From contig JAKEHV010000558.1 in the NCBI GenBank assembly GCA_022614915.1, positions 1-17,973 on the forward strand: a DNA stretch of 17,973 nt. Direction: 5' to 3'. Every line of letters begins with the position of its first letter. The first letter of the stretch is position 1. Positions 4,245 through 17,973 of this stretch are shown here, one piece after another. The translations under genes and the position numbers were made by a program. The DNA is from Gemmataceae bacterium (GTDB taxonomy: Bacteria; Planctomycetota; Planctomycetia; Gemmatales; Gemmataceae). The notes beneath the pieces were generated by a model. The model saw nothing but the letters and a program-made list of their open reading frames with translations. It searched no databases and was not told where the DNA came from.

Positions 4245-5015
4245 GTGACCCTCACGTTCGATTTTCCCGAATGTACACGGTCGCCGCTGGGGCGCTGGGA
4301 CCCGCGTTGGAAACTGGCGGGCGTTTTGCTGAGCGTGATCGCCGCGGCGCTGGTGCGGACGCTCCCCGCGTCACTTGTGATCTTCGCCGGCGCGGTAATA
4401 CTCGTCCTCCTCGCCAAGCTTCCGCTGCGCTGGTATTTCGGCCGGCTTGTCGTCCTCGCCGTCTTTCTCGCTGTCTTCCTGGTCTGGTTGCCGTTCCTTT
4501 ATCCTGCACCGACGCTCAAAATCTTGGGGGTTGAGCTCTCAGAAGAAGGAATCCGCTTGGCGCTGACGCTGCTCCTTAAGGCGGCGGCCATCGTCTCGCT
4601 GTTCCTGGCGCTGTTAGCGACCGCGCCCTTGCCTGAGACTCTGCTGGCCGCCCAAGCGCTGCGCTGCCCGCGCTTGTTCTTGCATTTGACCCTGCTCACC
4701 TATCGCTATGTGTTTCTGCTGGCGGAAGAAGTGGTGCGCTTGCGCAGCGCACTGCGTGTCCGCGGTTATCGCAACCGGGCGACGGCCCACAGCTACCGCA
4801 CGGTCGGCCAGGCCGCTGGATCGCTTCTGGTGCGCAGCCACGAGCGGGCCGAACGCGTCGATCAGGCCATGCGCTGCCGGGGCTTCGACGGAGTCTTTCG
4901 GACGCTGCAGGCGTTCGCAACACACTGGAGTGACGTGGCCGGCTTCCTGCTGCTCGTGGCCGGTTCGACGGCAGTGCTGATCTGGGATATTGTGGTGCGT
5001 GCTGCTCAAATCTAG
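4245..5015 (+). CDS. Energy-coupling-factor transporter transmembrane (T) component, EcfT/CbiQ family
   Basis: Polytopic membrane protein with the EcfT coupling-helix motif (EEVVRLRSALRVRGY, the Ala-Arg-Gly signature). The start was moved from 4164 (inside the hairpin) to GTG 4245, which has a GGAG 8 nt upstream. TTG 4242 is an alternative. Confidence 0.65.
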   Translation: MTLTFDFPECTRSPLGRWDPRWKLAGVLLSVIAAALVRTLPASLVIFAGAVILVLLAKLPLRWYFGRLVVLAVFLAVFLVWLPFLYPAPTLKILGVELSEEGIRLALTLLLKAAAIVSLFLALLATAPLPETLLAAQALRCPRLFLHLTLLTYRYVFLLAEEVVRLRSALRVRGYRNRATAHSYRTVGQAAGSLLVRSHERAERVDQAMRCRGFDGVFRTLQAFATHWSDVAGFLLLVAGSTAVLIWDIVVRAAQI

Positions 5016-10242: not shown

Positions 10243-12267
10243 GTGGATAGTCGAATCAGTCGCACCATGGCAGAATCAGCGTCACAACCATTGTCGCCTT
10301 CCCAAGGAATTCTCAGTCAACTCCGAATCCGGCTAGGCCTAGGTCTTTTGCGCTTGGCGACCGAAGGCCGCCCGTCCGAGGCGGATGCCATTGCCGTTAT
10401 CCACACCGCGCTCGATCAGGGCGTTCGTCTGCTTGATACGGCCGACTCCTATGCGCAGAGCGACGCCGATTTTCACTATGGCGAGCGATTGGCAAGTCAA
10501 GCGTTAGCATCGTGGCAGGGACCCAAGGACGAAATCAAAGTCCTTACCAAGGCCGGCCTGACTCGACCCAAAGGGCGCTGGGTCCCCAACGGCCGGCCTG
10601 AGCACTTGCGGAAGGCGGTCGACGGCAGTCTGCAAGCCCTTGGCGTCGAGCGGCTGTTCCTGTTGCAACTTCATGCCCACGATCCACGCGTGCCGTTCGA
10701 GGAAACGCTCGCAGCGCTGGCCGAATTGCAGCGCGCGGGCAAAGTCGAGCATTTGGGACTTTGCAATGTCACTCCGTTGGAGCTCAAGCAAGCGCAGCGG
10801 CACTTTCGCGTGGCCGTCGTGCAGAACGAACTGAGTGTACTCAATCGCAAGAGCGCGGCGGACGGCATGCTGGAATGGACGAGGCAGCAAGGGATACCTT
10901 TCCTGGCGCATCGGCCGCTCGGCGGCTACGCCAAGGTTGCCCGCCTTGCCAAGAACCAGGTGCTCGGACCGCTCGCCGAACGGCACAACGCGACGCCGCA
11001 CCAGGTTGCCTTGGCCGCTCTCTTAGTCGCAAGCCCGCACGTCGTGCCGCTGGTCGGCGCCACCCGCGCCGAAAGCGTGCTCTCCTCAGTGGCCGCGCTA
11101 CGCATCTCGCTAGATGTGAGCGACCGCACGGCGTTGGAAATGCGCTATTCGTTCGCCGCGGAACCCGACGCGCTCGCCTTCATCGCACCCCCTACTCCAA
11201 TCATCGAACAGAAGGCTGCCCCTTCACGCCTTCACCCTTTCACCCCTTCACCTCTTCCCGCTGCTGTGCCAGCCCAAGCCCAAACACTAAGTCCCGGCGC
11301 CGATCCCGAGGTCGTGCTTCTCACGGGCATTCAAGGGGCGGGAAAGTCGGAATTGGTCGCGACTTATCTCGAAAAGGGCTATGCACGCCTTAATCGCGAT
11401 CTGTTGGGCGGCAAGCTTGATGACCTGGTGCCGCGCCTCGTGCAGCACTTGCGCTCGGGACAAATACGCGTGGTCTTGGACAACACCTATCCAACGCGGG
11501 TATCGCGCGCTCCGGTCATCGCCGCCGCGCTGGCTCATGGCGTGCCGGTGCATTGCCGGCATCTGGCGACGCCGCTCGCTGAGGCGCACATCAACATCGT
11601 CCTGCGCACCTTGGCGAAATACGGCCGGCTTTTGGGTCCGGAAGACATGAAAGCGCTCAACAAAACCGACCCGAACCTGCCGCCGCCGCCCGCGCTTTTG
11701 CGCTACGTCGGCAGCTTCGAGCCGCCGGCGCTCGACGAAGGCTTCACGGCCTTGGAGACGATCCCGTTCGTCCGCCGGGTCAATCAGCGCCACACCGAGA
11801 AAGGCATTTTGCTCGACGTGGATGGCACGCTGCGCAAAACGCGCAGCGGCGAGATTTATCCGCGCCATCCCGACGACCAGGAGCTGTTGCCCGGTCGCCG
11901 GCCGACGCTGGCCCGTTGGATCGAAGCGGGCTATCGGCTTTTCTTCGTCTCGAACCAAAGCGGCGTCGCCTCGGGCAAGCTCGACCGGGCAGTTGCGGAA
12001 GCGGCATTTCTGCGCACCGCCGAGATTTTGCAATTGCCGGTCGCGGAGGTCGCCTATTGCCCGCACCCCGCCTTCCCCGTCGGCTGCTATTGCCGAAAAC
12101 CGATGCCTGGTCTTGGCATCTATTTGATGCAACGCCATCGGCTGGCCCGCGAACAGCTCATCGTCGTGGGCGACATGGACAGCGACGCGCAATTCGCCGC
12201 CGGATTGGGCGCACGCTACTTCGATGCGACAACGTTCTTCGCCCTCAACGGCCCGAGACCAGAATAG
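10243..12267 (+). CDS. Tri-domain fusion: aldo/keto reductase + PNK-like P-loop kinase + HAD-IIIA phosphatase (GmhB/PNKP-like, Zn-binding Cys loop)
   Basis: AKR domain aa ~20-300: LDTADSYA, VLTKAG, LLQLHAHDP (catalytic D/Y/K/H positions). A Pro-rich linker follows. The Walker A motif (LLTGIQGAGKS), VVLDNTY and the R-x3-R motif (TRVSR) match a T4-Pnk-like kinase. The HAD motif I (LLDVDGTL), plus CPHPAFPVGCYCRKPMPGLG and VVGDMDSD, match the GmhB/PNKP-type phosphatase with a Cys zinc loop. The start is 10243, with ATG 10267 as an alternative. Confidence 0.7.
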   Translation: MDSRISRTMAESASQPLSPSQGILSQLRIRLGLGLLRLATEGRPSEADAIAVIHTALDQGVRLLDTADSYAQSDADFHYGERLASQALASWQGPKDEIKVLTKAGLTRPKGRWVPNGRPEHLRKAVDGSLQALGVERLFLLQLHAHDPRVPFEETLAALAELQRAGKVEHLGLCNVTPLELKQAQRHFRVAVVQNELSVLNRKSAADGMLEWTRQQGIPFLAHRPLGGYAKVARLAKNQVLGPLAERHNATPHQVALAALLVASPHVVPLVGATRAESVLSSVAALRISLDVSDRTALEMRYSFAAEPDALAFIAPPTPIIEQKAAPSRLHPFTPSPLPAAVPAQAQTLSPGADPEVVLLTGIQGAGKSELVATYLEKGYARLNRDLLGGKLDDLVPRLVQHLRSGQIRVVLDNTYPTRVSRAPVIAAALAHGVPVHCRHLATPLAEAHINIVLRTLAKYGRLLGPEDMKALNKTDPNLPPPPALLRYVGSFEPPALDEGFTALETIPFVRRVNQRHTEKGILLDVDGTLRKTRSGEIYPRHPDDQELLPGRRPTLARWIEAGYRLFFVSNQSGVASGKLDRAVAEAAFLRTAEILQLPVAEVAYCPHPAFPVGCYCRKPMPGLGIYLMQRHRLAREQLIVVGDMDSDAQFAAGLGARYFDATTFFALNGPRPE

Positions 12268-12338
12268 ACTCGACTACACTGGCGTTCCAAACCCGATAAA
12301 CTAGTAGTGTCACACTCAGTTGAGGTAGGGTGCAAGTA

Positions 12339-12671
12339 GTGAACAAGCGCTTTTTGATGAACGCCGGCCGAACGACCAAGCAAGGACAGCAAATCAACGT
12401 GGGCAAAGATTCCGCTGAATATCAAGCAATCGTCAACACCATCACGATGCACGCGGACGATATGAAGGAAGTGGGCATTGCCGCCGGCGCCACCGTCCGC
12501 GTCCGTTCCGATAATGGCGAGGCGCTTTTTCAGTGCAAAGAAGGTAAAGTCCCTCCGGGGATGATTTTCGTGCCGTATGGACCGCCGACTTGCCGCCTCA
12601 TGGGCCAAACCACCGACGGCACCGGCATGCCCACGTCGAAGGGTTGGGAAGTCGAAGTGGAACCGGCATAG
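12339..12671 (+). CDS. fwdD: Formylmethanofuran dehydrogenase subunit D-like (stand-alone molybdopterin-dinucleotide-binding domain)
   Basis: ~110-aa protein (NAGRTTKQGQ...TDGTGMPTSKGWEVEVE) resembling FwdD/FmdD (MxVxLNTGRTxxQG...TDGTGMP). Directly upstream of fwdB. The start is GTG 12339 or GTG 12330, with GAGGT upstream. Confidence 0.65.
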   Translation: MNKRFLMNAGRTTKQGQQINVGKDSAEYQAIVNTITMHADDMKEVGIAAGATVRVRSDNGEALFQCKEGKVPPGMIFVPYGPPTCRLMGQTTDGTGMPTSKGWEVEVEPA

Positions 12672-12879
12672 GCCAGGAGTCAGAGGTTATGGAAGTGAAG
12701 CGAGACGATCTTGTGGAACAGGCGGCGTGGGAATTGATCGACACGGGACGCTACAGGCCGCGCCGGATTCGGGGAAGCTGCCTTGGCCGGGAATTGGGCT
12801 GAACGTTCGTCGTGCCGCCCGGTACGGGCGCTGAGGCGAACGTTGAACACACTCCCATCCTGCCAACTGAGAACACGCA

Positions 12880-14211
12880 ATGACGTTATCCATTGTCAAA
12901 AACGCTACCTGCACCTTTTGCGGCTGCGTGTGCGACGATATCGAACTGCACGCCGAAGGCGAGAAAATCGTCAAGACCAAAGGCGCGTGCAGTCTCGGCG
13001 AATCTTGGTTCAAGCACCACACCGCCGAGCGGCTGTACCCGGATGCCTTGATCGACGGCAAACCCGCAACGGTCGATCACGCAGTCGAAGCAGCCGCCAA
13101 TTACCTTTACGACGCGAATATGCCGCTTGTCTATGGCCTCAGCAACATCACGTGCGAGGCCCAGCGCGAAGCAGTGTTTCTGGCTGAGATCATCGGCGGC
13201 GTCATCGACAGCCACACCTCGTTATGACACGGTCCCACGGAAATCGCCGCCCAGTTGGGCGGCAAGGTCTCGTGCACTCTCGGCGAAGTCAAGAACCGGT
13301 GCGACTTCATGATCTATTGGGGCGGCAACCCGGCCGAATGCCACCCGCGCCATTTCACCAAGTACTCGCTCACGCAAAAGGGCAAGTTCATCCCGAATGG
13401 CCGCAAGGATCGCACCATGGTCCTGGTGGACATTCGCGAAACGCCGAGCGCCAAAGCCGCGGACCTGTTCCTGCAAATTCGGCCCGGCAAGGATTTCGAA
13501 GTCATCACCGCCCTGCGCGCCATCATCAAAGATCAGCCTGTCAACCCGAAAAGCGTCGCCGAAACCGGCTTGACTGTCGAGCAATTGCAAGACCTGGTCA
13601 AACAGATGAAAGCTGCTCGCTTCGGCATCATCTTTTTCGGCATGGGCCTGTCGATGACGCGCGGCAAGCACATGAACTCCGCCGGCGTCTTGATGCTCGC
13701 CGCCGAGATGAACGCTTTCACCAAGTTCGTCGCCATGCCCATGCGCGGCCACGGCAACGTCACCGGCTCCGACATGGTTATGCGCTGGAGCACCGGCTAT
13801 CCCTTCGGCGTAAATCTGTGCCGCGGGTATCCGCGTTTCAACCCCGGCGAGTACTCCACCGTGGACCTCTTGGTCCGCGGCGACAACGACGCCGCCCTCA
13901 TCCTCGGCGCCGACCCCGGCGCGACCATGCCGCAACCCGGTATCGACCACCTCGCACGCATTCCCACGATTGTGCTCGACCCCAAAGTCACCCACACCAG
14001 CCGCATTTCGCGCGTGCACATCACCACCGCCGCCACCGGCGTCAGCGCGCCCGGCACCGTCTACCGCATGGACGAGATCCCGTTGCCCTTGCGGCCCGCG
14101 CTCAAGTCGCCGTATCCGACCGATGAGGAAGTGATCCGGCGGATTCGCGAGGCGGTGGCGAAAAAACCGGCGTGGCGGCCGAGCCCGAACGGGCAGATGG
14201 CAATTGTGTGA
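12880..14211 (+). CDS. fwdB: Formylmethanofuran dehydrogenase subunit B, selenocysteine-containing (in-frame TGA at 13225-13227 read as Sec)
   Basis: N-terminal Fe-S motif (CTFCGCVCDDIEL, as in FwdB). The ORF-track pieces 12880..13227 and 13255..14211 are in the same frame. The TGA context reads ...DSHTSL-U-HGPTEIAAQLGG, which matches the conserved U/C-H-G-P-[ST] active site of the formate-dehydrogenase/FwdB group. The total length of 443 aa equals a full-length FwdB. A GC hairpin at 13246-13263 downstream of the TGA is consistent with a bacterial SECIS. Confidence 0.7.
13240..13270 (+). other. Putative bacterial SECIS element (stem gccgccc / gggcggc, loop aguu) 18 nt downstream of the UGA
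   Basis: 7-bp GC stem at 13246-13252 paired with 13257-13263, 4-nt loop. The apical loop lies ~28-31 nt from the UGA, similar to the fdhF SECIS spacing. Confidence 0.5.
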
Positions 14212-14280
14212 ATGCGTTGTAACGATTACGATACATTCGTGAATGGTTGCCAGCCGAATGCCCGATGCAGAGGGACCACT

Positions 14281-14541
14281 ATGGCAAATCCTCAGGAAAA
14301 CGGTCAGGCGAAAATCGAAGAAGCGAGCAGCAAGGCTGAGAACGCTCGACTTACGGCTTTGGTGCAACAACTTCAAAGCGAATGCGAGACGTTGCGCCGC
14401 GCCCTCGCGAAAGCCGAAGAGGAGCGCAACCTCTATCTGAAAGCGGTGTATGAGCACCATCGTGCGAGCCGCGAGTTTGAAGACGTCGACATTCCCTCCC
14501 TCGAGGCGATCTCAGCAGGTCCCGTGGAATTGATCGATTAG
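14281..14541 (+). CDS. Small charged coiled-coil hypothetical protein (first gene of the low-GC insert)
   Basis: AGAGGGA lies 6 nt upstream of ATG 14281. The sequence (AKIEEASSKAENARLTALVQQLQSECETLRRALAKAEEERNLYLKAVYEHH) is heptad-like. No family recognised. Confidence 0.45.
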   Translation: MANPQENGQAKIEEASSKAENARLTALVQQLQSECETLRRALAKAEEERNLYLKAVYEHHRASREFEDVDIPSLEAISAGPVELID

Positions 14542-14556
14542 CGCGAGGACCGCCTG

Positions 14557-14847
14557 ATGCCCGCTGTCAAGGTTCATTGGACGCGCCTATCGAAGCCGCA
14601 ATTTGACGACTTGCGCAAGCGGGCGGAAGAAAGTGAACGGCTAGCGGAATTCAGTCGCGCCCACAACGAGATTGTCTTGGCGCTCCGCGATCTCGATCAA
14701 GCGATGACGAAAGGTGAGCCTGCCTACCGGACCCGTAAGTCCGGTGGCGTGCGGACCAGCAGGAGCAACGATCTGTCCTGCGGTATTCAATGCAAAATGC
14801 GGCAAAAGTCGCCAGAAAGAACCGCTATTGATTGCTCGATGAGCTAG
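14557..14847 (+). CDS. Hypothetical protein (96 aa)
   Basis: GAGGA lies 7 nt upstream of the ATG, which is 16 nt after the previous stop. No recognisable family. Confidence 0.4.
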   Translation: MPAVKVHWTRLSKPQFDDLRKRAEESERLAEFSRAHNEIVLALRDLDQAMTKGEPAYRTRKSGGVRTSRSNDLSCGIQCKMRQKSPERTAIDCSMS

Positions 14848-14884
14848 GATGAACCACTGGCATTCTTAGAATCGGAATAAAGCC

Positions 14885-15325
14885 ATGAGTGAGCAACTTG
14901 AACAACGCTTTGACGCAGCGATGATGGATATCTATCGTCGTGCAAAGTCAGAAGCAAATTACAACGCCAGTCGCTTCTTTCAGATGCTTACCGAGCATCG
15001 GGGTCTTGAGACAGCCCGTATCCTACTGCACGCGGACACGGTCTCGGAAGGTTACACTGCTCTTTGGGAGCGTGGCCGTCTCGACCTGACCGTTGAAGCG
15101 CTTATTCACGACCATCCTGAGTTTCATCCCCTGTTCACTCAGGAGGAGCTAGGCATTGCGCGACGGCGTCTGATTGACTACAAGTATCCGCCGCTTATTG
15201 ATCCTGTCGAGCCGCTCATTGGGCGGTTCCCAAGCAACGTCCCGAATTGGACGACCGAACACGACAAACACCTTGGGCAGGCGCTAATGGAGGAAATGCG
15301 CGGCAAGAGCGGCGCCGGGGGCTGA
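14885..15325 (+). CDS. Hypothetical protein, candidate cognate partner (antitoxin-position) of the downstream PIN toxin
   Basis: Its stop (TGA 15323-15325) is separated by 1 nt from the PIN gene ATG (gctGAcATGccg), i.e. translational coupling. No family recognised from sequence. Confidence 0.45.
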   Translation: MSEQLEQRFDAAMMDIYRRAKSEANYNASRFFQMLTEHRGLETARILLHADTVSEGYTALWERGRLDLTVEALIHDHPEFHPLFTQEELGIARRRLIDYKYPPLIDPVEPLIGRFPSNVPNWTTEHDKHLGQALMEEMRGKSGAGG

Positions 15326-15326
15326 C

Positions 15327-15743
15327 ATGCCGGAGTTGTTCGCGGACACGTCGGGGTGGGGGAATTTGGTGGACCCCACGGAGCCCTACCATTCATTGGC
15401 GGCAAGCATCTACCGCACGGCGCGCCAACAAGCACACAAACTCGTCACCACGAATTACGTTTTGGCTGAACTTGTGGCGTTGCTCACCAGTCCGCTTGGC
15501 TTTCCTCGGCCAACAATCGTAACAATCATCGACGGTTTCAAGCATTCACCCTTTGTCGAAGTAGTTCATGTGGACCAGGTCTTGGATTCGGCCGCGTGGC
15601 AACTCTTGCGAAATCGACTGGATAAGGACTGGAGCCTGGTTGACTGTGCGAGCTTTGTTCTTATGCAAAACCGTGGCATCATTGAAGCACTGACCACGGA
15701 TCATCACTTCGAACAGGCAGGGTTGGTCCGTCTCTTGAAATGA
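15327..15743 (+). CDS. vapC: PIN-domain ribonuclease (VapC-like toxin)
   Basis: All four PIN acidic residues are present in the expected places: LFADTSGW (D7), VLAELVAL (E), SLVDCASF (D), TTDHHFEQAG (D). Confidence 0.7.
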   Translation: MPELFADTSGWGNLVDPTEPYHSLAASIYRTARQQAHKLVTTNYVLAELVALLTSPLGFPRPTIVTIIDGFKHSPFVEVVHVDQVLDSAAWQLLRNRLDKDWSLVDCASFVLMQNRGIIEALTTDHHFEQAGLVRLLK

Positions 15744-15753
15744 GATTTCACGC

Positions 15754-17379
15754 ATGCTGCGTATCACCGGCGGCAAAGTCTACGACCCCGCCAACAACAT
15801 CAACGGCGTCGTCCGGGATATCTGCATCGCGGATAGCCGCATCGTCGCCGGCGTCGAGGGCGGCCGAAGCATCGACGCCACCGGCATGATCGTTTTCCCC
15901 GGCGGTGTGGACATTCACACACACGTGGCCGGGGCGGCGCTCAACTTCGCGCGGGCCATGACCCCGGAAAACCAGCGCGCCGCCGCCAAGTTCACGCACA
16001 CGCCCGAGCGGCGCATGGGCATCGGCGGGCCCACGCCCACCACCTTCGCGACCGGCTACCTTTACGCCGGCATGGGCTACACCACCGTCGTCGAAGCCGC
16101 AGTCCCCGTCCTGTCCGCCAAGCACACGCACGAAGAGCTGCGCGATACACCCATCGTCGACAAGGCGTCCTGCCTGTTGATGGCCAATAACGAAATCGTG
16201 CTCGACCTTCTAGAAGCCGGCGACGTCGAGCAGGCCAAGCACGTCGTCGCCTGGCTCGTCTGGGCGGCGAAGGCCTACGGCGTCAAAGCAGTCAACCCCG
16301 GCGGCGTCACGGCCTGGAAGTGGGGCAAGGACGCCAAGATCATGTCCGAACCGGTCTATGGCTACAACAAAGTGACGCCGGCAAAGATTGTTTCCAGTTT
16401 GGCCAGGATCATCGATCAACTTGGTTTGCCACATCCTCTACACCTGCACTGCAACAACCTGGGCGCGCCGGGCAACGTCGCCACCACGCTCGAAACCATG
16501 AAGGTGCTCGAAGGCAACCGGGCACACATGGCACATTTGCAGTTCCATAGCTATGGTGGCGACGACTGGCACTCGATGCGCTCCGAGGCGACGCAGATCG
16601 CCGATTACTTTAACGCCCATCCCAACCTCACTGCCGACGCCGGCGCGGTCCTCTTCGGCAACGCGGTCACCATCACCGCCGACGGGCCGTGGCAGCACTT
16701 GCTCTATCAGCTCACCGGCCGCAAGTGGGGCAACCTCGACGTCGAAAACGAAACCGGCTGCGGCATCGTGCCCTACACCTACAAGGGCAGCAATCTTGTC
16801 AACGCGGTGCAGTGGGCCGTCGGCTTGGAGCTCTTGCTCTTGATCAAGGACCCGTGGCGCATCTTTTTGACCACGGACCATCCCAACGGCGCGTGCTTCT
16901 GGCGCTATCCGGAGATCATACACCTCTTGATGAACGCCGACGCCCGCAATGAGCGCGTCCGCAAGCTGCCGGAAAAGGCGCTCAAGCGCATCGTTCTCGC
17001 CGACCTAGACCGGCAATACACGCTGTCGGAAATCGCCATCATCACTTCCGCGGGCCCGGCGCGAGCGCTCGGACTGAAGCAAAAGGGCCACCTCGGCGTG
17101 GGCGCCGACGCCGACGTGACCATCTACAACGAAAACCCGGACGGCGAACTCATGTTCCGCTATCCGCGCTACGTCATCAAAGCGGGCGAAGTCGTCGTCG
17201 AGGAGGGCGACATCCGCGCCGGGCACGATGGCCGCGAGTTCGTCGTCAAGCCGGCGTTCGACGAGAAGATAGAAGAGTTTCTGCGACCGGTGTTCCAGCA
17301 GTATTACACGATGTCGTTCGACAACTACCCGGTTGAGCTGGAACGCATACACAGATTAGAGATCGCGGCTTGCCATTAG
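15754..17379 (+). CDS. fwdA: Formylmethanofuran dehydrogenase subunit A (amidohydrolase-superfamily FwdA/FhcA)
   Basis: N-terminus (MLRITGGKVYDPANNINGVVRDICIADSRIVAGVEGGRSIDATGMIVFPGGVDIHTHVAGA) is collinear with FwdA (M..I.NG.VYDP.NGI.GE..DI.I.DGKI......IDA.G..VMPGGVD.HSHIAG). ~541 aa. Confidence 0.8.
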   Translation: MLRITGGKVYDPANNINGVVRDICIADSRIVAGVEGGRSIDATGMIVFPGGVDIHTHVAGAALNFARAMTPENQRAAAKFTHTPERRMGIGGPTPTTFATGYLYAGMGYTTVVEAAVPVLSAKHTHEELRDTPIVDKASCLLMANNEIVLDLLEAGDVEQAKHVVAWLVWAAKAYGVKAVNPGGVTAWKWGKDAKIMSEPVYGYNKVTPAKIVSSLARIIDQLGLPHPLHLHCNNLGAPGNVATTLETMKVLEGNRAHMAHLQFHSYGGDDWHSMRSEATQIADYFNAHPNLTADAGAVLFGNAVTITADGPWQHLLYQLTGRKWGNLDVENETGCGIVPYTYKGSNLVNAVQWAVGLELLLLIKDPWRIFLTTDHPNGACFWRYPEIIHLLMNADARNERVRKLPEKALKRIVLADLDRQYTLSEIAIITSAGPARALGLKQKGHLGVGADADVTIYNENPDGELMFRYPRYVIKAGEVVVEEGDIRAGHDGREFVVKPAFDEKIEEFLRPVFQQYYTMSFDNYPVELERIHRLEIAACH

Positions 17380-17482: not shown

Positions 17483-17973
17483 ATGATAACGCTGACTCTC
17501 AAAGAACAACCGTCAGTGCCTCTGGAAACGGAGGTCATCTCGCCCGATGTGACCGCGAGCTTGACGCACGACGCGCTTCGTGCCCTGCCCGTGTACTTGG
17601 GCAAGCGTCATTGCCGGCTGGACGATTTCTTCGCGGTCGAAGGAGCCGCCAGCGACGCCATCGAACTGCGCGGCGACCTCTCGAAAGTGAAATGGATCGG
17701 CCGGGCCATGACGCGTGGCCGCATCAGCGTGCAGGGCAACGCCGGCATGCACCTGGGCGCGTACATGAAGGGCGGCAGCATCGAAGTGGCGGGCAACGCC
17801 TCTGACTGGGTCGGCGCCGAGATGACCGGCGGGCTCATTCGCGTGCGCGGCAACGCCGGCGGCCAAATCGGCGCGGCCTACCGCGGCAGCCTCGCCGGCA
17901 TGAACGGCGGAGCAATCCTCATCGGCGGCTCGGCGGGCCTCGAAGTCGGCATGCGCATGAAACGCGGCATCAT
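17483..17973 (+). CDS. fwdC: Formylmethanofuran dehydrogenase subunit C (FwdC beta-helix repeat protein), 3'-truncated by the window end
   Basis: Not in the ORF track because it runs off the window. Frame 2 from ATG 17483: MITLTLKEQPSV...RISVQGNAGMHLGAYMKGGSIEVAGNASDWVGAEMTGGLIRVRGNAGGQIGAAYRGSLAGMNGGAILIGG. These are the repeated G-N-A-G / M-x-G-G-x-I-x-V beta-helix units characteristic of FwdC and GltB C-terminal domains. Confidence 0.7.
   Translation, partial: MITLTLKEQPSVPLETEVISPDVTASLTHDALRALPVYLGKRHCRLDDFFAVEGAASDAIELRGDLSKVKWIGRAMTRGRISVQGNAGMHLGAYMKGGSIEVAGNASDWVGAEMTGGLIRVRGNAGGQIGAAYRGSLAGMNGGAILIGGSAGLEVGMRMKRGI

Follow-up and report, generated by a model that had tools for sequence, protein, structure and literature searches.

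A selenium-dependent formylmethanofuran dehydrogenase, FwuB, was reportedly described from Methanopyrus kandleri by Vorholt et al. in 1997. FwdB is listed as a verified selenoprotein family of both bacteria and archaea with the motif UHxP, which is also the motif given for FdhA selenoproteins (PMC13188914). Among bacteria, a gene for a selenocysteine (Sec)-containing form, Sec-fmdB, is found within an fmdD-fmdB-fmdA-fmdC operon of the planctomycete 'P2', a relative of Rhodopirellula, and in two unclassified bacteria, with Cys forms coexisting (Kim et al., 2016; PMC4807772). No Sec insertion sequence (SECIS) was detected for the P2 gene with bSECISearch (S9 Table, PMC4807772). The present work concerns the fwdB gene carried on a 17,973-nt stretch of DNA from a Gemmataceae bacterium (contig JAKEHV010000558.1), hereafter the window, within which fwdB coordinates are counted on the + strand. 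The gene contains an in-frame UGA at 13225-13227, and it is very likely that this codon encodes Sec at the metal-binding site of FwdB.

The locus resembles those of planctomycete P2 and the Lake Washington fosmid bacterium in several respects (PMC4807772). All have a bacterial FwdB with UGA at the ligand position and an fmdDBAC operon, the gene is annotated as two genes, and Cys paralogues coexist with the Sec form, as they do here in one related locus (L083). It differs from P2 in that no SECIS was found there, whereas a hairpin of the bacterial SECIS (bSECIS) type occurs across 80 species here, a comparison made by description and not by sequence, and in that the clade consists of Gemmataceae-type and soil or freshwater metagenome-assembled genomes (MAGs). 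Sec-FwdB in bacteria is already catalogued, and the present gene is not new in kind. A preliminary description of the window, made from the DNA alone, had presented a bacterial Sec-containing enzyme of this type as noteworthy, which overstated the case given the planctomycete Sec-fmdB of 2016 (PMC4807772) and the listing of the family in bacteria (PMC13188914). New here are a comparatively validated SECIS for the clade, the scale of the annotation error that the UGA brings about, the tandem Sec and Cys paralogues of L083, and the contrast in identity between FwdB/FwdA and SelA/SelB in two related loci, L017 and L018.

Other described systems share some of these features and lack others. Archaeal FwuB of M. 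kandleri and FwdB of the Methanococcales are likewise members of TIGR03129, with the UHxP motif, Sec at the same position and coexisting Sec and Cys isoenzymes. The archaeal SECIS most often lies in the 3' untranslated region and has another architecture (PMC13188914), whereas the hairpin considered here lies within the open reading frame (ORF) and encodes A-A-Q-L-G-G. Archaeal complexes also have the polyferredoxin subunits FwdF and FwdG, neither of which is encoded in the window. The FwdABCDFG complex of M. wolfeii (5T5I) is matched in FwdB (E = 1.3e-108 over residues 5-428, with equivalents of the Fe-S Cys residues, His119 and Arg288) and in FwdD (E = 7.7e-17), and FwdA and FwdC are present here as well; it differs in having Cys118 and not Sec as ligand, in serving CO2 reduction in a methanogen, and in its electron-supplying subunits, which are not encoded here. 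FdhF of E. coli (Sec140) has a UGA followed by an in-ORF hairpin read by SelB, together with the UHxP motif, and is distantly homologous (1aa6_A, E = 2.8e-4); unlike FwdB it is a single 715-aa polypeptide of fused domains, and its SECIS is unrelated save for the GU in a small apical loop. FhcB of Methylorubrum extorquens (6S6Y) is a bacterial homologue with methanofuran-type and tetrahydromethanopterin (H4MPT) cofactors and FwdA- and FwdC-like partners, but it matches at E = 1.2e-12, is 361 aa long, aligns from query residue 57 onward and has no N-terminal Fe-S motif. The M. extorquens Fhc complex is non-redox.

The fwdB frame opens with ATG at 12880, closes with a terminator at 14209-14211 and holds a single in-frame TGA, so that 115 codons, the TGA and 327 further codons specify 443 residues. 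The ORF list cuts the gene into 12880..13227 (115 aa) and 13255..14211 (318 aa, with a TTG start). When the two parts are joined, with Cys put in place of the TGA as input for the family search, the product matches TIGR03129 at 491 bits (cutoff 327.8, or ~328, bits) over model positions 1-421 of 421 and protein residues 8-426 of 443, and its residues 3-428 align with the archaeal FwdB chains 9sfi_Q, 8rja_B and 5t5i_B of the PDB (E = 1e-113 to 1e-108). The preliminary description had read the two pieces as one same-frame gene whose 443-aa product is collinear with FwdB on both sides of the TGA, and these results bear it out from end to end. TGA is also the terminator of seven of the 14 window genes whose stop codons were checked, fwdB itself included; reassignment of UGA in the genetic code is ruled out because the codon serves here as an ordinary stop.

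Residue 116, specified by the TGA, is aligned to Cys118 of M. wolfeii 5t5i_B, which we take to be the tungsten ligand, to Cys in 8rja_B, and to a non-standard residue X in the solved chain 9sfi_Q. Among full-length bacterial homologues of 60-71% identity, eight also have Cys at this column, in line with the placement of U at the Mo/W ligand column put forward earlier. The local context SL-U-HGPT is as it had been described, and U-H-G-P fits UHxP. His117 pairs with His119 of 5t5i_B. Arg289 pairs with Arg288 (PMRGH and PMR288GH, respectively) in a column that is invariant in the homologue alignment A1, and the Arg in question is presumably catalytic, as the structural literature on FwdB and formate dehydrogenases indicates. 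The N-terminal Cys motif proposed in the preliminary description is likewise present: C11, C14, C18 and C37 are aligned to the CxxCxxxC...C residues of solved FwdB chains and full-length homologues, and by comparison with the FwdB structure they are predicted to be ligands of a [4Fe-4S] cluster.

Conservation of the codon and its surroundings was examined in the DNA of 80 species-representative genomes, which with the window make 81 sequences. Codon 116 is TGA in 79 of the 80 species and TGC (Cys) in the remaining one (L010). The peptide that follows the TGA, HGPTEIAAQLGGK, is unchanged in all species except L080, where Val replaces Ile, and the wider context [I/V]DSHTSL-U-HGPTEIAAQLGGK is common to all species but L080. 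The nine codons from the TGA to the TTG (HGPTEIAAQ) are essentially invariant as protein, and within this stretch Gly is encoded by four codons, Pro by four, Thr by four, Glu by two and Ile by three. His117 is CAC in 79/81 sequences, where His codons elsewhere split about 2:1. The two halves of fwdB are 79-87% identical as protein across species, with abundant synonymous change. Cys thus pairs with Sec at the ligand column in the solved chains, in the eight homologues and in L010. The preliminary description had taken the identity of this column as decisive, and its conservation holds within the clade (TGA in 79/80 species, TGC in one) but not beyond it: more distant full-length homologues (60-69% identical) have Ser, Thr or Arg there and no hairpin. 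These forms do not undermine the Sec call for the present clade, since they are distant and hairpin-free.

The Ser, Thr and Arg residues stand in column 149 of alignment A1, in database homologues P0003, P0005, P0006, P0008, P0009, P0022, P0032, P0044, P0058 and P0113. The Fe-S Cys motif is present in all of these homologues, and the His and Arg in nearly all. The Thr-type gene of L084 stands alone, with fwdA, fwdC and fwdD not nearby. In L010, where TGC lies at 10346-10348, the hairpin is still present (GCTGCCCAGTTGGGCGGC), and the locus suggests a recent conversion from Sec to Cys. In L083 (4590-7332), a Sec-type fwdB with TGA at 4968 and the same hairpin lies in tandem with a hairpin-free Cys-type paralogue, P0117, with Ftr and fwdD upstream and fwdA downstream; the arrangement resembles the Sec/Cys isoenzyme pairs of methanogens.

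The stem-loop noted earlier 18 nt downstream of the TGA is a perfect 7-bp hairpin, GCCGCCC-AGTT-GGGCGGC at 13246-13263, with a folding energy of -15.0 kcal/mol when taken alone. Published limits for bSECIS elements comprise an apical loop of 3-9 nt, an upper stem of 4-16 bp, a UGA-to-loop distance of 16-37 nt, a loop that starts with G followed by G/U in its first two positions, and a minimum free energy <= -7.5 kcal/mol (PMC13188914). With a loop of 4 nt, a stem of 7 bp and a UGA-to-loop distance of 25 nt the hairpin lies within all of these limits, the start of the loop being scored as in agreement on the basis of A-G-U-U, with GU at loop positions 2-3. A comparable hairpin at SECIS spacing follows 4 of the 215 TGA triplets of the window (1.9%) by chance. 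The hairpin is therefore only weakly beyond chance in the single sequence, and it is clearly non-random across the 81 sequences.

The evidence from the 81 sequences lies mainly in synonymous sites. Ala+7 is encoded as GCC in 75 and GCT in six, Ala+8 as GCC in 78 and GCT in three, and Gln+9 and Leu+10 as CAG and TTG in 81/81, where other nearby Leu residues use five to six codons. In a ranking of the degenerate codons conserved between -100 and +60 around the TGA, 97 in all, Gln+9 and Leu+10 show the strongest constraint, and the four codons that make up the 5' arm and loop fall within the seven most constrained (Mann-Whitney p = 5e-4). Variation within the stem is nearly all of the kind that turns GC into a GU wobble, affecting four of the seven pairs on one side, and 96.4% of stem cells are paired as against 29-56% for slid registers. 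The consensus for the clade is GCYGCYCAGUUGGGYGGN, 18 nt after the UGA, and the window hairpin is intact and matches the commonest forms. Relatives with another residue at the ligand column serve as controls. The Cys-type paralogue that lies beside the Sec-type copy in L083 has no hairpin, the Thr-type gene of L084 encodes the identical A-A-Q-L as GCC GCT CAA CTA without one, and the Ser-type gene of L086 and the Cys-type gene of L085 have no equivalent. The frozen codons are thus not an effect of amino acid sequence or codon bias. Both the fit to the published limits and the frozen codons uphold the earlier proposal of a selenoprotein gene with a bacterial SECIS.

Genes for Sec insertion were found within 10 kb of fwdB in five relatives (L017, L018, L022, L042 and L074). 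Four of these five loci also have tRNA-Sec, and selA, selB and selD occur together in three. As located with ARAGORN, tRNA-Sec lies some kb upstream of fwdB in L017 (two copies), L018, L042 and L074; the copies of L017 and L018 score 71-75 bits against Rfam RF01852, which has a threshold of 47 bits. The order in L018 is selB (323 bits), selA (514 bits), tRNA-Sec and selD (393 bits), followed by the fwd genes. The nearest contigs to the window, L081 and L082, which are 92-94% identical in DNA across the fwd cluster and 83-85% identical in the flank with aldo-keto reductase (AKR) and S41 peptidase genes, have no sel genes in the stretch examined. Complete gene sets for Sec insertion are known from Gemmata obscuriglobus and Isosphaera pallida (Kim et al., PMC4807772). 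As a separate observation, the two tRNA-Sec genes of L017 (3804-3897 and 8475-8570) are full-length, stand 4.6 kb apart, differ at two positions, and flank a gene for an NHL-repeat protein and other ORFs; the pair may reflect a duplication or an insertion at selC.

The reading of UGA 13225-13227 as Sec draws on the in-frame UGA, its alignment with the ligand Cys, the conservation of UGA, frame and hairpin, the fit to bSECIS limits and the Sec machinery of relatives, and several other readings of the same gene may be weighed against it. Gene callers treat the UGA as a true stop, which would leave a 115-aa Fe-S fragment and a 318-aa fragment re-initiated at TTG 13255, and that TTG is invariant. 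The TTG is, however, accounted for by the hairpin: its two T's close the loop and its G opens the 3' arm. The stretch from TGA to TTG must be translated in the fwdB frame, because HGPTEIAAQ is invariant as protein in all but one species while its synonymous sites vary; it also contains the catalytic His and lines up with the solved FwdB structures. Translation in frame excludes two separate polypeptides as well as a pseudogene; in a split gene the metal ligand would be lost altogether, and in L010 the TGC gives one continuous ORF. A split gene is accordingly highly improbable. A nonsense-mutated pseudogene, or an error of sequencing or assembly, has nothing in its favour except the presence of the stop codon, and its probability is negligible: the same TGA recurs in 79 independently assembled species in which the halves are 79-87% identical. 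Purifying selection acts on both sides of the TGA, and with its presence in 79 species this rules out both pseudogene and error, in agreement with the preliminary description, which had dismissed a pseudogene. Read-through of the UGA as a standard residue (Cys or Trp, by near-cognate decoding) in a genome devoid of Sec machinery would agree with the want of such machinery in the window and with the change to Cys in one relative. It is nonetheless very unlikely, as the SECIS hairpin would decay without SelB and is intact, relatives have full sel sets that in some cases adjoin fwdB, near-cognate decoding is inefficient for a metabolic enzyme, and the easy escape from TGA to TGC has been taken in 1/80 species only.

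The Sec call could also be right for a complex that is a non-redox formyltransferase/hydrolase of the Fhc type. Genes for a polyferredoxin or another electron carrier are not conserved beside the cluster, and, to our knowledge, the bacterial H4MPT pathways characterised so far, those of methylotrophs, use Fhc. Against this, the complex has kept FwdD, the Fe-S Cys motif and the catalytic His and Arg, along with a Sec ligand that is costly. An FhcB of the Fhc type is marked by having lost both the ligand residue and the N-terminal Fe-S domain, and the window FwdB keeps both. It is not of the Fhc type: its match to archaeal FwdB (E = 1e-109) is much stronger than that to FhcB of M. extorquens (6s6y_B, E = 1e-12), a protein without the first ~55 residues. 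A non-redox complex is consequently very unlikely. Returning to Sec116 in a redox enzyme, several results weigh against it. Double compensatory changes in the stem are absent within the clade, which is too uniform for covariation, and for this reason structural support for the hairpin comes from the freezing of synonymous sites and the wobble-only variation and not from covariation. The 66-nt fold after the UGA is not unusual (z = -0.69), although such a single-sequence value carries no information in DNA this rich in GC. Curated RNA families gave no match to the hairpin: a search of 12800-13500 in Rfam E-value mode returned matches at chance level alone (E = 3-7) and no SECIS family, and in gathering mode the whole window returned none. 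Within the 18-kb window there is no sel gene and no tRNA-Sec, nor any tRNA at all. Clustering of ORFs from 81 loci revealed no electron-transfer partner gene conserved beside the cluster; beyond fwdD, fwdB, fwdA and fwdC nothing occurs in more than about 15 loci, a coarse result as the ORF picker preferred antisense ORFs over the split fwdB. Data on selenium incorporation into a bacterial FwdB were not found in the literature.

The preferred reading is of one intact fwdB gene in which UGA is read as Sec116. The in-ORF hairpin would act as a bacterial SECIS, with SelB·GTP·Sec-tRNA(Sec) binding to it as the ribosome reaches the UGA. Sec116 would occupy the position of Cys118 in M. wolfeii FwdB and, as the ligand from the protein, coordinate Mo or W, the metal of a bis-pyranopterin cofactor that FwdB and FwdD would hold between them. 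With the N-terminal [4Fe-4S] cluster, His117 and Arg289 it would make up a site for formate/CO2 redox chemistry, and FwdA would interconvert formate plus methanofuran (MFR) with formyl-MFR. Selenium incorporation itself, binding by SelB, the identity of the metal and the electron acceptor are matters of prediction from these comparisons. Related Cys-type clusters sit amid genes for methanofuran and H4MPT metabolism (4HFCP synthase and an Mpt_N protein in L085, Ftr in L083), for which reason the physiological direction is probably oxidation of formyl-MFR to CO2 in H4MPT-linked C1 metabolism.

Gene callers systematically mis-annotate fwdB as fragments without the Fe-S domain and the catalytic Sec-His pair. 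Some 100 among the top 120 homologues in the database (83-98% identity), NCBI MAG records included, are 311-330 aa long, the size of the fragment after the TGA, and in L081 and L082 the annotation divides fwdB into pieces of 115 and 318 aa. Metabolism as reconstructed from Gemmataceae, Vicinamibacterales and related MAGs consequently shows a broken or 'Fhc-like' enzyme. The hairpin consensus and its spacing from the UGA provide a simple rule for mending such calls. One NCBI protein of 417 aa, P0001 (83% identical), comes from a gene model without 26 residues exactly around the TGA site, as if the annotation had jumped over the stop. The picture of the enzyme family and of Sec decoding is unaltered by these results. 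Judged from sequence, they support a redox-active, selenium-dependent formylmethanofuran dehydrogenase in widespread soil and freshwater bacteria, and they bear on the oxidation of C1 units and the selenium requirement of those organisms.

The fwd genes and the Sec machinery of L017 and L018, an Acidobacteriota-labelled and a Planctomycetia-labelled genome, have diverged to different degrees. FwdB is 87% and FwdA 76% identical between them, as against 48% for SelA and 33% for SelB, and the tRNA-Sec genes clearly differ; the SECIS hairpins are alike save for third-position wobble variants. This contrast tentatively suggests that the fwd module has spread laterally between phyla, each with Sec machinery of its own; the taxonomic labels of MAGs are those of the submitters, and cross-phylum inferences are tentative for that reason. 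It is conceivable, if rather less than probable, that fwdDBAC with its near-invariant SECIS constitutes a laterally mobile selenoenzyme cassette whose recent spread took in Planctomycetota, Acidobacteriota (Vicinamibacterales), Gemmatimonadota and others from soil and fresh water. If so, a single 'portable' SECIS would be read by very divergent SelB proteins, and a redox-active formyl-MFR dehydrogenase would be present in many uncultured non-methanogenic bacteria known only from MAGs. The sel operon lies directly beside the fwd module in L018, L042 and L074, and under the same supposition FwdB could be the selenoprotein through which the Sec trait is maintained, a role usually ascribed to FdhA.

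The coordinates of fwdB, its elements and the neighbouring fwd genes are given in Table 1.

Table 1. Features of the fwd cluster, with positions counted within the 17,973-nt window.
Feature	Position	Strand	Basis or detail
fwdD, 113 aa, molybdopterin-dinucleotide-binding small subunit	12330..12671	+	Pfam Molydop_binding, 52.5 bits
fwdB, full length, 443 codons including one predicted Sec codon	12880..14211	+	TIGR03129 and PDB FwdB matches
N-terminal Cys motif C11, C14, C18, C37	12910..12990	+	Alignment to solved FwdB chains
In-frame TGA, Sec116, predicted Mo/W ligand	13225..13227	+	Aligns with Cys118 of 5t5i_B
His117 codon CAC, UHxP histidine, codon itself constrained	13228..13230	+	CAC in 79/81
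Bacterial SECIS-type hairpin	13246..13263	+	Stem 13246-13252/13257-13263, loop AGUU 13253-13256
TTG (Leu126), gene callers' start for the 318-aa 'FwdB'	13255..13257	+	ORF list
Arg289	13744..13746	+	Alignment to Arg288 of 5T5I FwdB
Four small ORFs (109, 96, 146 and 138 aa), the last with a PIN domain	14212..15743	+	PIN, 28 bits
fwdA, 541 aa, amidohydrolase subunit	15754..17379	+	TIGR03121, 696 bits
fwdC, N-terminal part, runs off the window end	17483..17973	+	Pfam GXGXG, 31 bits

The order of the cluster is fwdD-fwdB-[insert]-fwdA-fwdC. FwdD scores 82 bits against NCBIfam FwdD, under the cutoff of 175 bits, and its five PDB matches are all FwdD chains, the best being 5t5i_D (E = 7.7e-17). The cutoff for TIGR03121, the family matched by FwdA, is 393 bits. 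The partial fwdC is syntenic with a GXGXG gene of 270-276 aa in L081 and L082. The four small ORFs between fwdB and fwdA are found in L081 and L082 and not in L017 and L018, in which fwdA directly follows fwdB; the insert lies outside the conserved fwd module and is possibly a toxin-antitoxin-like module.

Other genes of the window are unrelated to the cluster and include those for a REP-associated tyrosine transposase (RAYT), a ceramidase-like protein, CbiQ, a flotillin-like protein, an S41 peptidase and a fusion of AKR, kinase and HAD-phosphatase domains. The RAYT gene (295-1029, - strand) scores 81 bits against a cutoff of 80 bits. The fusion protein (10243-12267) has 674 aa and consists of an aldo-keto reductase, a P-loop kinase (AAA_33, polynucleotide-kinase-like) and a HAD-IIIA phosphatase; it lies beside the S41 peptidase in L081 and L082 as well. 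In these two contigs the flank with the fusion, S41 peptidase and flotillin genes is downstream of fwdC on the other strand. Relative to this flank, the block from fwdD to fwdC of the window is inverted in comparison with L081 and L082, with a breakpoint at 12260-12342.

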